From a virus: DNA of 13,256 nucleotides. Below the pieces are notes generated by a model. The model was given only the letters and a program-made list of their open reading frames with translations. It ran no database searches and was not told the DNA's origin. The translations under genes were made by a program, and so were the position numbers. Below are positions 1,214 through 12,902 of the stretch, one piece after another (the stretch's first letter is position 1; the number at the start of each line of letters is the position of its first letter). The stretch is taken from the UHGV virus genome UHGV-0086716; one strand, 5' to 3'.

Positions 1214-1543
1214 TCATTTCTGCTCTCCCTTGTGTTGTGCGTTCTCCCTGATTATGTCATTGCATAAATCCACGCACTCATTGCAGATCCAAACAGATGG
1301 TCCGGCAATAATCTGTCTGACATCGTACTGGCTTTTGTTGCAGAAGCTGCAATAAAGCGTCTTCCCGACTGAAGTTGGTGTTTTGCTGGGCTCTCCACAC
1401 ACCAGTCGTTCGATGTCTCTTTCGCGCCGAAGAGCGATCTGGCTGCATACAGCTATTTTTTGCAGGTTGATGTTTTCTTTTTTCGCCAGTGCTTCAATTT
1501 GATCAATCAGTCGCTGCGCTTTTTCTCTGTCAATATATTGCAT
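1214..1543 (-). CDS. Small protein (109 aa) with C-terminal ClpX-type C4 zinc-binding domain
   Basis: ATG at 1543 preceded by GGAG with 8-nt spacer (the track's GTG at 1552 is less likely). C-terminal [38 protein letters not shown] closely matches the N-terminal zinc-binding domain of ClpX as I recall it (C-x2-C-x19-C-x2-C). N-terminal ~60 aa looks helical. Confidence 0.75.
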
Positions 1544-1557
1544 TGCGCCCACTCCGA

Positions 1558-1905
1558 TTACTGGGTTGCGATGACTGGCAGCTCTTCGCCAGCGCCGTAG
1601 ATAAACAGAATTCGCTTCATGACTTCGCTGCGCTTACAGGCTTCGATGACTGATTTTTCCTGTTGCCACTCAGCCCGTTTCGCCAGCTCCAGCCGTTCCT
1701 TTTCCGTTGGCTTCCGGTAATGCGTGATTTTGTCCGTGTACCCGTCCACAACCAGCAGCCCTTCGCGTACCATCTTTCCGGCGGCCTGATTGATTACAGT
1801 TCTTCTCACACCCAGTTTTTCGACCAGCTCCGGCGCGGAAAAACGCGGGTGTGTTTCCAGGTGGCGTAAAATGATTTCCTTTCCGGTCATTCTGGTGGGC
1901 TTCAT
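1558..1905 (-). CDS. Putative winged-helix DNA-binding protein (115 aa)
   Basis: Start re-called to ATG at 1905 (track gave 1974): AAGGAG 5 nt upstream and ATGA overlap with the upstream gene's stop. Segment [31 protein letters not shown] has an HTH/wing pattern. Confidence 0.65.
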
Positions 1906-2072
1906 TGGGCGGCTCCTTCGTTGTTCCGGCGTTCCCGGAGTTCGGTCAGTGCTGCCAGTAAATTTTCCCACCACGTTTCTTCCACAACCGGATTGTGTCG
2001 TGAAAGCAGCTGCTGCGCTGACTCAATCATTTTATTCAGGTCTTTGTCGCTGATCTTCCTGATGTCGTTCAT
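1902..2072 (-). CDS. Small hypothetical protein (56 aa)
   Basis: Start re-called to ATG at 2072, which has AGGAG 6 nt upstream; the track start at 2111 has no RBS but forms an ATGA overlap, so 1902..2111 remains possible. Acidic/helical; no recognisable domain. Confidence 0.5.
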   Translation of the reverse strand: MNDIRKISDKDLNKMIESAQQLLSRHNPVVEETWWENLLAALTELRERRNNEGAAQ

Positions 2073-5016: not shown

Positions 5017-5391
5017 TTACTCCGCGATGCTGTTCAGTGCGCCGAGGCAAACAGCGGTCAGGCGCTGGATTTCCTGCGCGGTGGCTTCAGGGCTTGCCCG
5101 GCGGTGCGTAATGCGAAGACTGTCGGAAATGACTTCAATGAGCACCGACGACGGGCACTGACAGATGCAAACAACACTTGCAATGGTGTCTTCAATGCGG
5201 GAGAGCGTGTAATTGCCCTGGTTGCAGGCAAGCAGGTAGCGGCCGTCAATGACAGTCTGACCATCGGGAAGTTGTGGTGCTGTGGGTTGCAACTTCCTGT
5301 ACATCTCGAAGCGATGGGCAACGCGATCTCGTGTACCGGCGTCGCTTTCGGTCTGAATCAGGTAAGTTACAAAATCATCGATGAGAATCAT
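5017..5391 (-). CDS. Hypothetical protein (124 aa) immediately upstream of A
   Basis: ATG at 5391 with AGGAGG 9 nt upstream; protein-like composition; same strand as operon. Confidence 0.65.
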   Translation of the reverse strand: MILIDDFVTYLIQTESDAGTRDRVAHRFEMYRKLQPTAPQLPDGQTVIDGRYLLACNQGNYTLSRIEDTIASVVCICQCPSSVLIEVISDSLRITHRRASPEATAQEIQRLTAVCLGALNSIAE

Positions 5392-5463
5392 TGTGGCAAT
5401 CCTCCTGTTGCAGATGTGCGGAAGCCTCCCGCGTACAGATACGGGATAGCTTCCGGATGTGGT

Positions 5464-5685
5464 TTATCGGTGCTGGTTGATGAGGCTTTGCAGTTCTGCC
5501 AGATCTTCGGCGAGATAGCTGAAGACAGCAGCGCAGTAACGGTTTGATAGCGCGTGCGTGCGCTCATGCAGCATGTTGATGTGCATGATTTGCGCGACGC
5601 GTGTTGCGCGGAAAAGTCTGCGGTTGATTTCGCTGCGTATGTGAATACGCTCAGCGCGGGCGCGCTGTTGCTTGCGGTTTGCCAT
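5464..5685 (-). CDS. Small basic hypothetical protein (73 aa)
   Basis: ATG at 5685 with AGAGG upstream; arginine-rich N-terminus suggests nucleic-acid binding. Confidence 0.5.
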   Translation of the reverse strand: MANRKQQRARAERIHIRSEINRRLFRATRVAQIMHINMLHERTHALSNRYCAAVFSYLAEDLAELQSLINQHR

Positions 5686-5728
5686 GGTGTGGCCTCTGCG
5701 TTAGTAAGTTCTGAAAACTCACCATCCA

Positions 5729-5917
5729 GAGTTGAGAATCTCGGGGTGGCGAGACGTACGGGGTTCTCAACACCGGCTAACACAGGACCCGGCCCGACCG
5801 AAGTCGGCCCCGTACGCCCCGCCATAATTCTGACGCGAAAAAGACGTGGCGATACAGTACGCACAAAAAAACCGCTGGCGCGGCTGTGCGCTGTGTTAGT
5901 CAGCGGGTTGAGAATCC
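5729..5917. repeat. Structured non-coding island with GTTGAGAA(T/C)C repeats and nested perfect stems
   Basis: GTTGAGAATC at 5731-5740 and 5907-5916 (direct); inverse copy GTTCTCAAC at 5763-5771. Nested TCTCG/CGAGA (5739-5743 / 5750-5754). Perfect 9-bp stem CGTACGGGG / CCCCGTACG (5755-5763 / 5808-5816) enclosing CCGAC-cgaa-GTCGG (5794-5807). No ATG-initiated ORF with an RBS in this stretch. Confidence 0.45.
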
Positions 5918-5982
5918 CGGCACCCGTTTTATGAGGTGCAGCGGAAATGTAACCTGACTCAACGAGCGCTGGCAAGCGGTTT

Positions 5983-6010
5983 TTGTGTTGCGTGCTGAAG
6001 TATGTATAAT
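5983..6010 (+). promoter_or_regulatory. Sigma70-type promoter for the plus-strand embedded gene
   Basis: -35 TTGTGT (5983-5988), 16-bp spacer, -10 TATAAT (6005-6010) preceded by TG; about 60 nt upstream of the ATG at 6072. Confidence 0.5.
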
Positions 6011-6071
6011 CGCGGCGCAAAAATGGAATGCGCCGAAGGATAGCGGCGTTTATTAACAATGGAGGTTGTTT

Positions 6072-6539
6072 ATGCCTGTTGCTATGGAGCAAGCAGACAA
6101 GAAGATTTTTTTCCATCTGTGGTACAGCTACTGGCTGGAAGAGATGGTTTTCATACTCAGCAATAAAGCCGCTGCCGTGTTGCGCGCCGGGGCACTGATT
6201 GCTGCGGTATTCTCCTTTCTTCTCGTAGGTTTTCCCGTCCTGATGAGCCTTTGCGGGCTGGCGTTTTTTGTTTTTTCCTGGTTTTGCAGCAAGTGTGAAT
6301 TCGTCGCCGAACTGGCGTGCTGGCAGAAACAGAGCTACCTTCGTCTGATTACGCAAAGGGATTCCATGAGCACTGAACGCCTCATTGAGCGCATTCTGTA
6401 TCTGGAAGAAACGAACAGCGCATTCATGAAGGCGTTTGTCAGGCCTGCAAAAAACAAAGCGAGCGCATCTGTTGGTCTGTCTGCCAGCGAGCATTTGCGT
6501 TACTCCGAAAGGTTAATCTGCTGGTTGTGCGGCTTCTGA
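6072..6539 (+). CDS. Embedded plus-strand gene: predicted membrane protein (155 aa) with cytoplasmic C-terminal domain
   Basis: ATG at 6072 with GGAGG 6 nt upstream and own promoter. Two hydrophobic helices (AAAVLRAGALIAAVFSFLLVGFPVLM, SLCGLAFFVFSWF); codon usage looks enteric. Opposite strand to the surrounding operon; 3' end overlaps the DUF4406-like gene by 27 nt. Confidence 0.6.
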   Translation: MPVAMEQADKKIFFHLWYSYWLEEMVFILSNKAAAVLRAGALIAAVFSFLLVGFPVLMSLCGLAFFVFSWFCSKCEFVAELACWQKQSYLRLITQRDSMSTERLIERILYLEETNSAFMKAFVRPAKNKASASVGLSASEHLRYSERLICWLCGF

Positions 6540-10571: not shown

Positions 10572-11096
10572 TTACTGGTTGCCTCCACTGTATTGGTGTT
10601 GCTCCAGTTTTGACTTTCTTCCTGTGTAAACCCGCTTTTCATTGATGGTCTGGCAGTCTTCTTTGTTTGCCGGGGAAAACTTTCTTTTCTGTCGGTCGTA
10701 CGTCCAGTAGCTTTTCCAGTTGTGCCATTCTGGCGGCTCGCATTCTGGTAATTCGTCAGCCAGCTTGTCCCACTCTCTGGCGTTAAACCACCATACGCCA
10801 TCCGAATTTTCGTCCTCAGGGTTTGAACGGGTCTTGTGTCCAGGCATCTGATTTCGCTGAAGCGCCACGCGCAATGCAGCTTTTGTCAACCCGATATAGG
10901 CCGCCCCTTTTTCAAGTGAGCAAAGTCCGGCTACCGGGCCATCCAGTCGCAAGGTTGCCCCTTTTTTGTAGGTGCGTTTTTTCTTTTCCTCTTGGTGTTC
11001 ATCGTCGTTTGCCGCACCAACGGATTCGGTGATGTCGCTACTTCCGTGGGGTTGCTGGGTGTCAGATAACTCTTTATCGGCAATGAAGTCCCGCAT
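10572..11096 (-). CDS. Cox-like early regulator/excisionase with N- and C-terminal extensions (174 aa)
   Basis: First gene of the leftward operon, divergent from the repressor gene; AAGAGG 7 nt upstream of ATG at 11096. Central segment AAYIGLTKAALRVALQRNQMP...GVWWFNAREWDKL resembles the P2 Cox HTH core as I recall it. Confidence 0.55.
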   Translation of the reverse strand: MRDFIADKELSDTQQPHGSSDITESVGAANDDEHQEEKKKRTYKKGATLRLDGPVAGLCSLEKGAAYIGLTKAALRVALQRNQMPGHKTRSNPEDENSDGVWWFNAREWDKLADELPECEPPEWHNWKSYWTYDRQKRKFSPANKEDCQTINEKRVYTGRKSKLEQHQYSGGNQ

Positions 11097-11155: not shown

Positions 11156-11179
11156 AAAGATACTCATACGAGTATCTTT
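11156..11179. promoter_or_regulatory. Perfect 10-4-10 palindrome in the divergent switch region (candidate operator)
   Basis: AAAGATACTC-atac-GAGTATCTTT, perfect dyad, 21 nt upstream of the repressor ATG and within the 103-bp interval between the divergent starts. Confidence 0.55.
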
Positions 11180-11199
11180 TGCGAGAGGTTAATACTCAA

Positions 11200-11541
11200 A
11201 TGGTTATCTTGTCAATAGACTATGCAAAAAAGCTACGTCAAATACGCAAGGCTGAAGGGCTAACGCAAAAGGAATTTGCGGATATTACGGGGTTGTCTTT
11301 AGCTGCCATAAGGAACTATGAATCAGGGCAAAAAAGCGCCAGAGCCAAAATTGTTGAGGCGGTTCTCCAGGTTGATCGATTTGAAAAATACATGATGTGG
11401 CTAATAAAAGATAAGACAATGCCTGTTGCCGGTCAGATAGCTCCGGCTCTCTCTCTTGATGGCTCCATTCAGTCGGAGGACGATCAGGATTCAATCCCAG
11501 CCACCCAAAAATCATCCCGATCAGGCCGCAATGCTGGCTAA
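11200..11541 (+). CDS. Immunity repressor, P2 C-like (HTH), 113 aa
   Basis: Motifs YESG, FEKYMMW and GQIAPAL match P2 repressor C as I recall it; HTH (LTQKEFADITGLSLAAIRNYESG). ATG at 11200 with GAGAGG upstream preferred over the track's TTG at 11179. Immediately upstream of int, as in P2. Confidence 0.8.
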   Translation: MVILSIDYAKKLRQIRKAEGLTQKEFADITGLSLAAIRNYESGQKSARAKIVEAVLQVDRFEKYMMWLIKDKTMPVAGQIAPALSLDGSIQSEDDQDSIPATQKSSRSGRNAG

Positions 11542-11610: not shown

Positions 11611-12603
11611 ATGTCGATTAAGCAACTCAAAGACGGGCGTTATAAGGTTGATGTAAGGCCGCAAGGGGCGGAAGGAAAGCGGATCCGTAAGATTTTTACC
11701 CTGAAGTCAAAGGCACAGGAGTTTGAAAGGTATGTTTTGCAGAATTTCCACGATAAACCGTGGCAGGCCAAGCCAGCTGATCAGCGTCGGTTATCCGAAC
11801 TGATAGATGCCTGGTGGGTGCTTGATGGTCGGAATCAGCCTTACGGGGATACTTACAGGGTCAGGCTGGAAAAAATAAACCGTGAGATGAGGGACCCCCG
11901 CGCCAGTGAGATGACGCGAAAGTTTATGCTCGGGTATCGTTCAGATAAATTACAGGCCGGATTAATGCCCTCCAGTGTTAATCGTGATTTGTGCGCCTTG
12001 TCTGCAATGTTTACCGCGCTGATTGATGCGGAGGTTTTCCATAATGAAAACCCGGTGCGTGGAATACGTAAGCTCAAGGTCAGGAATACAGAAATGGCCT
12101 TTCTTTCAGATGATGAGATTGATCGGCTCCTTGAGCGACTCGAGGGTGATGCGCGTCGCGTTGCTGTTCTGTGTCTTTCCACTGGCGCAAGGTGGGGGGA
12201 AGCGGCTGGTTTGCGTGGTGAGCATATCGTTGGTAACCGCGTAATGTTCTTTAACACAAAGAATGGAAAATCCCGCGCAGTTCCTGTTTCTGATACGGTG
12301 CTTTCGTTGATAAAAACCCGAAAAACTGGGCTATTGTACCAGGCTGATTACATCCGTTTTCGGGAGATCCTTCAGGAGGTGAAGCCGGACTTGCCGAAAG
12401 GGCAGGCCACCCATGTCATGCGTCATACATTCGCTACACATTTCATGATGAATGGCGGAAATATCGTTACGCTACAACGAATCCTGGGCCATGCCACGAT
12501 TCAACAAACGATGACGTATGCGCATTTTTCGCCGGACTTTTTACAGGATGCAATCAGCTTTAATCCGCTGGCTGAAAGTGTCCATAAACTGTCCATCGAT
12601 TAG
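11611..12603 (+). CDS. int: Tyrosine integrase, P2 Int-like (330 aa)
   Basis: GGAGGGG RBS 6 nt upstream. Catalytic-region pattern LCLSTGARWGEAA, HVMRHTFATHFMMNGGNIVTLQRILGH, TMTYAHF (R...HxxR...Y). Last phage gene before host DNA. Confidence 0.92.
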   Translation: MSIKQLKDGRYKVDVRPQGAEGKRIRKIFTLKSKAQEFERYVLQNFHDKPWQAKPADQRRLSELIDAWWVLDGRNQPYGDTYRVRLEKINREMRDPRASEMTRKFMLGYRSDKLQAGLMPSSVNRDLCALSAMFTALIDAEVFHNENPVRGIRKLKVRNTEMAFLSDDEIDRLLERLEGDARRVAVLCLSTGARWGEAAGLRGEHIVGNRVMFFNTKNGKSRAVPVSDTVLSLIKTRKTGLLYQADYIRFREILQEVKPDLPKGQATHVMRHTFATHFMMNGGNIVTLQRILGHATIQQTMTYAHFSPDFLQDAISFNPLAESVHKLSID

Positions 12604-12718
12604 TTGTAACTTGTGCTTATTTGCTCCCCTTGTTTTGATTTACTCATTGAAAAATAAGCAAATCATCAAGGGGAGTAAGTAGCGTTAAACCTCCTGCGGG
12701 CGCTTTTTTTGTCTCCCT
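12604..12718. other. Prophage/host junction containing an att-like core
   Basis: GAAAAATAAGCaaatcatcAAGGGGAG (12649-12675) resembles the P2 att core as I recall it. An upstream segment (12612-12630) carries reverse-complement copies of the same sub-motifs. T7 run at 12704-12710. Confidence 0.4.
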
Positions 12719-12732
12719 TTGATACCGAACAA
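12719..12732 (+). promoter_or_regulatory. FNR-type binding site upstream of dmsA
   Basis: TTGAT-accg-AACAA matches FNR consensus TTGAT-N4-ATCAA at 9 of 10 positions, 171 bp upstream of the dmsA ATG; dmsA is a known FNR-activated anaerobic gene. Confidence 0.5.
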
Positions 12733-12902
12733 TAATTACTCCTCACTTACACGTAATACTACTTTCGAGTGAAAATCTACCTATCTCTTTGATTTTCAAA
12801 TTATTCGATGTATACAAGCCTATATAGCGATCTGCTATAGAAATAATTACACAATACGGTTTGTTACTGGAATCAATCGTGAGCAAGCTTGAGTGAGCCA
12901 TT

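Follow-up and report, generated by a model that had tools for sequence, protein, structure and literature searches.

A predicted IsrK–C4 antisense RNA module in the leader of an epsilon-like/gene A operon of a P2-like prophage

Specificity in phages P1 and P7 resides in the a'/b' sequences, the basis of P1/P7 heteroimmunity. In work by Citron and Schuster in 1990, the c4 antisense RNA of P1/P7 immI, with the sites a1 b1, a' b' and a2 b2, was reportedly described as controlling icd-ant. P1 C4 controls the anti-repressor Ant (PMC8201110), and the literature has already equated IsrK with seqA and C4 with CI RNA (PMC3632133). At the Gifsy-1 locus, the trans target of IsrK is its own read-through mRNA, through which it turns on the anti-repressor AnrP, and a stable RNA further downstream, STnc1160, is complementary in part to IsrK (PMC4825925). 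Here we describe a locus of this kind in the virus genome UHGV-0086716, a stretch of 13,256 nucleotides (nt) that was analysed whole and is called the window below. The window is a P2-like prophage (P88/Xuanwuvirus-like); among named phages, P88 and other members of Xuanwuvirus stand nearest to it. An island at positions 5700–5940 is very probably the leader of a minus-strand operon that encodes a two-RNA IsrK–C4 immunity module. The element is an ordinary, sequence-recognisable C4/CI plus IsrK module; what is new is its host, a P2-like prophage, and its wiring, with an epsilon-like gene as first cistron and the replication protein gpA downstream. No description of the module in P2-like or Xuanwuvirus phages turned up when the literature on them was searched for C4 or IsrK.

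The window was scanned with Rfam at curated gathering thresholds and then rescanned permissively. The C4 antisense RNA family (RF01695) matched 5829→5742 on the minus strand at 77.8 bits (gathering score 45; model positions 1–87 of 87), and the isrK family of Hfq-binding RNAs (RF01394) matched 5939→5865 on the same strand with 62.3 bits against 50, also over the full length of the model (1–77 of 77). The P1-type c4-a1b1 model (RF03163) stayed below threshold, with 15.9 bits against 46.7 at 5952→5900, overlapping the isrK match. Judged by its sequence, the upstream element carries a1/b1 and would do the same job as c4-a1b1, but it is of the isrK sequence family. The parts of the leader and of the operon that follows it are, in the direction of transcription:

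5946–5975, minus strand: predicted sigma-70-like promoter (−35 TTGCCA at 5975–5970, 18-nt spacer, −10 TACATT at 5951–5946; promoter scan)
5865–5939, minus strand: IsrK-like small RNA, the equivalent of the P4 seqA region and of the P1 a1/b1 element, its hairpins showing b1 and a1
5907–5916, minus strand: b1, GAUUCUCAAC, which complements b' of C4 and lies in the loop of the hairpin CGGG-AUUCUCAA-CCCG
5891–5899, minus strand: a1, CUAACACAG, a perfect 9-nt complement of the C4 a' loop
5865–5885, minus strand: Rho-independent terminator of the IsrK-like RNA, AGCCGC-GCCA-GCGGUU then U7 (terminator scan)
5864–5830, minus strand: 35-nt spacer between the IsrK-like RNA and C4
5742–5829, minus strand: C4/CI-type antisense RNA, with a 17-base-pair (bp) outer stem, a UUCG hairpin, a second hairpin (12-nt loop) and a single-stranded junction
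5777–5785, minus strand: a', CUGUGUUAG, within the 12-nt loop of C4 hairpin 2
5762–5771, minus strand: b', GUUGAGAACC, with the core GUUGAGAA (5771–5764) unpaired in the C4 junction
5731–5740, minus strand: b2, GAUUCUCAAC, the b' target, in the leader directly 3' of C4 and beginning 2 nt past the C4 match
5693–5704, minus strand: a2, CUAACGCAG (5704–5696), running into the Shine-Dalgarno (SD) sequence GAGG (5696–5693); the start codon is at 5685–5683
5464–5685, minus strand: 73-amino-acid (aa) epsilon-like gene, the first cistron after the RNAs and the presumed regulated target
5391–5017, minus strand: orf124, between the epsilon-like gene and gene A
5010–2521, minus strand: replication gene A (Pfam Phage_GPA, E 4.5e-117)

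For comparison, a set of 84 related loci was anchored on the 73-aa protein (2 genome loci, 80 viral contigs, P88 and one E. coli prophage). The region of about 310 nt was whole in 84/84 of them, at 84–96% identity and in 55 distinct versions, and it was present in 1179 of 5426 complete E. coli genomes (approximately 22%). All further homologue counts refer to the 55 distinct sequences. The minimum free energy (MFE) fold of 5829→5742 was identical to the Rfam C4 consensus (−49.5 kcal/mol, z −3.9); the plus strand of the same segment folded less well (−38.2 kcal/mol, z −2.2). All three C4 helices, 27 pairs in total, were 100% paired across the homologues, with double-sided compensatory changes at 4 pairs, and several conserved pairs are G–U on the minus strand only and would read C–A on the plus strand. 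The C4 segment shows a tRNA-like stem and a 3' GCCACC tail; no tRNA or tmRNA was found in the window. The IsrK-like RNA had an MFE of −25.4 kcal/mol (z −2.9), its helices were 99.4–99.7% paired, and its terminator coincides with the 3' hairpin of the isrK model and is kept in all homologues. The predicted promoter ends 7 nt ahead of the isrK match, so that the implied start, at about 5939, is the first base of the match. Its −35 TTGCCA was invariant (55/55), the −10 TACATT was found in 53/55, and the spacer, variable in sequence, was 18 nt long in 55/55.

Selection maintains all four pairings between C4 and its flanking sites. For a'-a2, 96.4% of the alignment cells were paired and 6 of 9 pairs were altered on both sides; the corresponding values were 99.4% and 7 of 9 for a'-a1, 92.5% and 4 of 8 for b'-b2, and 92% and 4 of 8 for b'-b1. 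The 7-bp core of b'-b2 was paired in 55/55, and the unpaired cells of the b pairings were, with one exception, at the outermost position. None of 500 shuffles matched the observed pairing scores, and controls in which the sites were slid were approximately 40% paired as against 98%. Variation was concentrated in the six blocks, where the majority-base frequency was 0.72, compared with 0.94 outside. The window's own a'-a2 duplex contains one G–U pair, and the duplex energies of the a1/b1 and the a2/b2 sites with C4 were similar.

These sites account for the symmetry that had been seen in a first-pass annotation of the island, made from the letters alone. That annotation had described three copies of GTTGAGAA(T/C)C, and a pattern search of the whole window agreed, with all three sited as it had said: GTTGAGAAYC occurred at 5731–5740 (+), 5762–5771 (−, where the plus strand reads GGTTCTCAAC) and 5907–5916 (+), every copy within the island and none elsewhere in the window. 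A repeat finder returned the 176-nt separation between the starts of the direct copies and the 8-bp inverted repeat (5731–5738/5764–5771), as had been reported. The 9-bp GC-rich perfect stem, CGTACGGGG/CCCCGTACG, was likewise present, enclosing the 5-bp hairpin CCGAC-CGAA-GTCGG; this stem is part of a 17-nt imperfect inverted repeat with arms at 5747–5763 and 5808–5824. The impression that such symmetry exceeds chance was borne out, with motif count and inverted repeats both non-random; for the motif, three copies compare with 0.04 expected, and none of 200 dinucleotide shuffles reached three. Because their coordinates coincide with the C4/IsrK pairing sites, the three 10-mers are b2, b' and b1, the inverted copy being b'. 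A second repeat triplet, absent from the first-pass annotation, consists of CTGTGTTAG (5891–5899), its complement CTAACACAG (5777–5785) and CTGCGTTAG (5696–5704).

Among the checks that the annotation had proposed, the search for the motif elsewhere in the prophage window confined all three copies to the island, folding of both strands favoured the minus-strand C4 segment, and stems and repeats were kept across the homologues with compensatory changes. Of its two suggestions, a stable small RNA or a multi-site operator, the former stood, in the form of two Rfam-family RNA genes on the minus strand with compensated stems, and the latter did not, the repeats being RNA-pairing sites. Placing the island with the plus-strand embedded gene was misleading: it belongs to the divergent operon on the minus strand, of which it is the promoter-proximal leader.

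Two further features of the C4 surroundings were seen. A candidate internal promoter 5' of C4 (TCGCCA at 5852–5847, 17-nt spacer, AATTAT at 5829–5824), the −35 of which reads TTGCCA in 24/55 homologues, was rejected as a source of C4 because its −10 overlaps the first base of the C4 stem and a start some 7 nt downstream would cost part of the 5' strand. Separately, CUCGCCA, which forms the 3' strand of the C4 outer stem, has an alternative partner in a conserved downstream UGGUGAG (window 5753–5714, minus strand). The resulting hairpin, also found in P88, shows b2 in a loop of 8 nt and has UUUU after it, in the manner of a terminator; its counterpart in P4 (approximately 8432–8390) has 9 bp of different sequence. 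This hairpin may be an alternative structure or a termination element.

The first cistron after the RNAs encodes the 73-aa protein. Its GAGG lies 7 nt ahead of the ATG at 5685, and AGAGG and ATG are conserved in the homologues. The protein belongs to phrog_3688 (E 9e-39), matches Pfam PF25738 Derepression at 28.1 bits (cut-off 27, E 1.7e-6) and is 32% identical to P4 epsilon over 50 aa (BLASTP, E 9e-8); its homologues bear the RefSeq name 'derepression protein'. By analogy with these homologues it would act as an anti-repressor. The gene order epsilon-like gene, orf124, gene A matches that of P88 and of an E. coli prophage. No terminator-like site was found in a scan of the minus strand from 5464 to 5300, and a search for homology of orf124 to P4 orf151 or orf106 found none.

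On the model of the homologous systems, the module would most likely work as follows. Transcription from the promoter at 5975–5946 would begin at about 5939, and most transcripts would end at the IsrK-like terminator (approximately 5865), giving an RNA of about 75 nt with b1 and a1 in hairpin loops. Read-through transcripts would carry the 88-nt C4-type RNA, which is probably excised from them as a stable RNA; in the C4 family, RNase P and others carry out this excision. In C4, a' (CUGUGUUAG) and b' (GUUGAGAA) would pair with leader a2 and b2, and since a2 abuts the SD of the epsilon-like gene, this pairing would block ribosome binding and keep the gene silent. Lost translation would probably lead to premature termination ahead of orf124 and gene A, so that both are possibly under polarity from the RNA switch. 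The IsrK-like RNA, with equally good a1/b1 sites, probably acts as a competitor for C4 or by refolding the read-through transcript, and would thereby set the threshold of the switch; relief of C4 repression by this RNA would allow the anti-repressor to be made. The a and b sequences would set the specificity, that is, the immunity type. Processing of C4, the translational block, polarity and the decoy role of the IsrK-like RNA are all taken over from the homologues. The P4/P1-type mechanism itself is said to rest on work by Citron and Schuster in 1990, Biere and colleagues in 1992, and Forti and colleagues and Sabbattini and colleagues, both in 1995.

Among known loci, P4 carries isrK (8692→8615) and C4 (8507→8420), the same families in the same order and on the same strand, and the P4 CI RNA scores 74.9 bits with the C4 model. 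In the P4 immunity region, which has been characterised experimentally, PLE, seqA, CI RNA/seqB and seqC are followed further on by epsilon and alpha. The order b1-a1/a'-b'/b2-a2-SD-ATG is shared, as are a promoter at the equivalent place (TTGCCT...TATAGT in P4) and an epsilon-family gene and a replication gene downstream in one operon (epsilon and alpha in P4). In contrast to P4, which is a satellite, the window is a P2-like helper-type phage. Its IsrK–C4 spacer is 35 nt, as against approximately 107 nt in P4; its first cistron is the epsilon homologue, whereas P4 has a small open reading frame (ORF) there and epsilon further down; its replication protein is gpA, a rolling-circle nickase, whereas alpha is a primase-helicase; orf124 is without a P4 counterpart; and the a and b sequences differ.

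A Stx2a lambdoid phage has the same two families in the same layout as the window. P1/P7 immI has a C4 RNA that the covariance model places in the same family, and shares its logic: an antisense RNA is processed out of the leader of the operon that it represses, its targets lie at the first gene's ribosome-binding site, and the output is an anti-repressor. The window differs from P1/P7 in that its upstream a1/b1 element is isrK-type and not c4-a1b1, its target is an epsilon-like protein and not Icd/Ant, and its host is a P2-like phage. Gifsy-1 also resembles the window, with an IsrK-family RNA that has its own promoter and a leaky terminator, a complementary RNA downstream and an anti-repressor-type output. 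At Gifsy-1, a lambdoid prophage of Salmonella in which the locus runs IsrK, orf45/STnc1160, anrP, the output is AnrP, the translation of which is coupled to a 45-codon ORF (Hershko-Shalev et al., 2016), whereas in the window a2 lies at the SD of the 73-aa gene itself, so that a small coupling ORF is not needed. The published mechanism at Gifsy-1 is activation by IsrK and not repression by C4.

The Gifsy-1 style of cis-refolding and activation is a live alternative, or complement, to the P4/P1 mode. In its exclusive form, the locus would be an IsrK-type positive switch only: a silent cis fold, with b1/a1 paired to a'/b', would be opened in trans by the short IsrK-like RNA, and the C4-like segment would be part of the mRNA and not a diffusible repressor. 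Such a switch was demonstrated experimentally at the homologous Gifsy-1 locus (PMC4825925); in the MFE fold of the complete 5939→5660 transcript, the IsrK part is base-paired to the region of a'/b', and the covariation of a1/b1 with a'/b' equals that of a2/b2 in strength. We nevertheless consider it rather unlikely as the whole account. The C4 fold itself is 100% paired and kept by compensatory changes, which points to selection on a folded, excised RNA; the complementarity of a2/b2 to a'/b' is also kept, at the SD; and the homologues P4 CI and P1 C4 are known trans-acting repressors. The two modes can also coexist.

The other explanations fare worse. The 10-mers and 9-mers would be DNA operators for a dedicated phage regulator, whether C-like, Cox-like or winged-helix, if their threefold occurrence in direct and inverted orientation close to a promoter were taken at face value, and a co-evolving operator set would likewise make all copies co-vary. 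Both repeat sets, however, fall on the single-stranded a'/b' of a curated RNA family, on hairpin loops and on the SD of one transcript, and some differences between copies are wobble-compatible, as in the G–U pair of the window's a'-a2. Moreover, the 24 combinations show that a types and b types have reassorted independently of each other; were a protein responsible, two DNA-binding specificities would have to co-evolve, and the homologous P4 sites are RNA targets in the literature (PMC3632133, PMC4825925); we regard operators as very improbable. Scarcely credible, in our view, is a protein-coding island, either as a plus-strand 'hypothetical protein' or as part of a 368-aa minus-strand ORF (5388–6494). 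Stop-free frames of 75–108 codons exist in all homologues on both strands, and database records annotate a 62-aa plus-strand coding sequence here. Variable columns were, however, spread over the codon positions as 24/22/28, with no third-position bias and therefore no sign of coding constraint; variation is restricted to mutually complementary blocks; the homologues differ by indels of 1, 2 and 17 nt; the 368-aa ORF reaches into DNA lacking in P88-type phages; and the two RNA families account fully for the region. The remaining possibility, a plus-strand small RNA or a 5' regulatory region of the embedded plus-strand gene (6072–6539), fits with the island lying upstream of that gene and with the capacity of inverted repeats to fold on either strand. 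Against it, the Rfam matches are confined to the minus strand, the conserved G–U pairs become C–A mismatches and the fold is weaker on the plus strand, the T-run terminator and the promoter both read the minus strand, and the island is conserved in phages without the embedded gene, with homology ending at 5988. This, too, can hardly be believed.

Several observations weigh against the two-RNA immunity module as proposed. The first regulated cistron in P4/P1 is a small kil/icd-type gene, whereas here it is the epsilon-like gene itself; mechanistic details may therefore differ from P4/P1. In Gifsy-1, the mechanism is activation by the short IsrK refolding a cis transcript, and a trans-acting repressor role of the C4-like STnc1160 is unsupported there (PMC4825925). 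The PF25738 match of the 73-aa protein is marginal, and control of gene A is put forward purely by analogy. Finally, the a1/b1 sites of one homologue, L009, pair with its own C4 at just 6/9 and 5/7 positions; matching upstream sites are therefore not strictly required.

This homologue (L009, 173–483) is a recombinant, with a1/b1 CAAACGAAG/TTTCCAC in its IsrK-like part, and a' CTTTGCTCT and b' TTGAGAA in C4 and leader. Across the 55 sequences, 15 types of a' are joined with 6 types of b' in 24 different combinations, and the two specificities therefore reassort. Four homologues (L005, L012, L017 and L018) are near-identical to the window and differ from it almost only in the three a blocks, a1, a' and a2. 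The window allele is rare: its a' (CUGUGUUAG) is unique among the homologues, and an IMG/VR search for its exact combination of a' and b' (GUUGAGAA), and for the a' loop in context, gave no match. In L080 (75–402; alignment columns 206–222), a 17-nt insertion duplicates C4 hairpin 2, giving two different a' loops, CUUUGCUCU and CUUGUGUAG, of which only the second, CUUGUGUAG, matches the a1 and a2 of the same locus. The L080 C4 may be a dual-specificity repressor.

The locus would place a P4/P1-type antisense switch with an epsilon-like anti-repressor directly upstream of the replication gene in P2-like prophages, which suggests a second layer of immunity or induction beside the C/Cox switch. 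For annotation, neither an array of operators nor a novel RNA is to be read into the symmetric island; pipelines omit the IsrK–C4 cassette or call a plus-strand 'hypothetical protein' in its place. The clean covariation of three sites supplies natural compensatory mutants with which to probe the specificity of RNA-based immunity. A bolder proposal, which we hold to be improbable, is that a large clade of P2-like helper-type phages natively shares an RNA immunity 'language' and an epsilon-type anti-repressor with P4-like satellites, the module standing directly before gene A. Were this so, at least 15 × 6 freely reassorted a/b types would define many heteroimmunity groups; helper and satellite could interfere with each other, a satellite CI RNA silencing the helper epsilon/A operon or a helper C4 silencing the satellite; and the immunity-epsilon cassette of P4 might have come from helper phages or be exchanged with them.

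Elsewhere in the prophage, the following were located:

11611–12603: integrase
11179–11541: helix-turn-helix C-like repressor
10572–11096: Cox-like protein

The minus-strand early operon also holds an exonuclease, a Dam methylase and a DUF4406 protein. Downstream of gene A, as in P88-type phages, are genes for a ClpX-type C4 zinc-finger protein (1214–1552, minus strand) and a MarR-like winged-helix protein (1558–1974, minus strand). Homology to P88-type phages, in which the embedded gene is missing, extends as far as 5988, a short way upstream of the module promoter; the embedded gene (6072–6539) is therefore an insertion upstream of that promoter and not its target. This plus-strand gene of 155 aa belongs to phrog_6315 and has no Pfam match. 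The DNA at 5989–6539 is not found in P88-type phages, and the DNA of the embedded gene is present in E. coli DETEC-S792. A perfect TATAAT precedes the embedded gene at 6005–6010 but lacks a good −35, and 27 nt at the 3' end of the gene are shared with the convergent DUF4406 gene. The embedded gene resembles a moron that has entered immediately upstream of the IsrK-like promoter.

The nearest characterised phage is P88, which was recovered following mitomycin C treatment. Neither C4 nor the IsrK-like RNA is annotated in the GenBank record of P88 or the RefSeq/PGAP record of the E. coli DETEC-S792 locus. Both carry instead, over the RNAs, a plus-strand 'hypothetical protein' of 62 aa (P88, 6147–6335; E. 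coli, 7346–7534), corresponding to approximately 5746–5934 of the window. Near the other end of the window, a full-length match to the enterobacterial small RNA STnc130 (RF02084, 122.3 bits against 55) lies on the minus strand at 12678–12812 and begins 75 nt past the integrase stop codon (12603); it is probably at or beyond the prophage–host junction.

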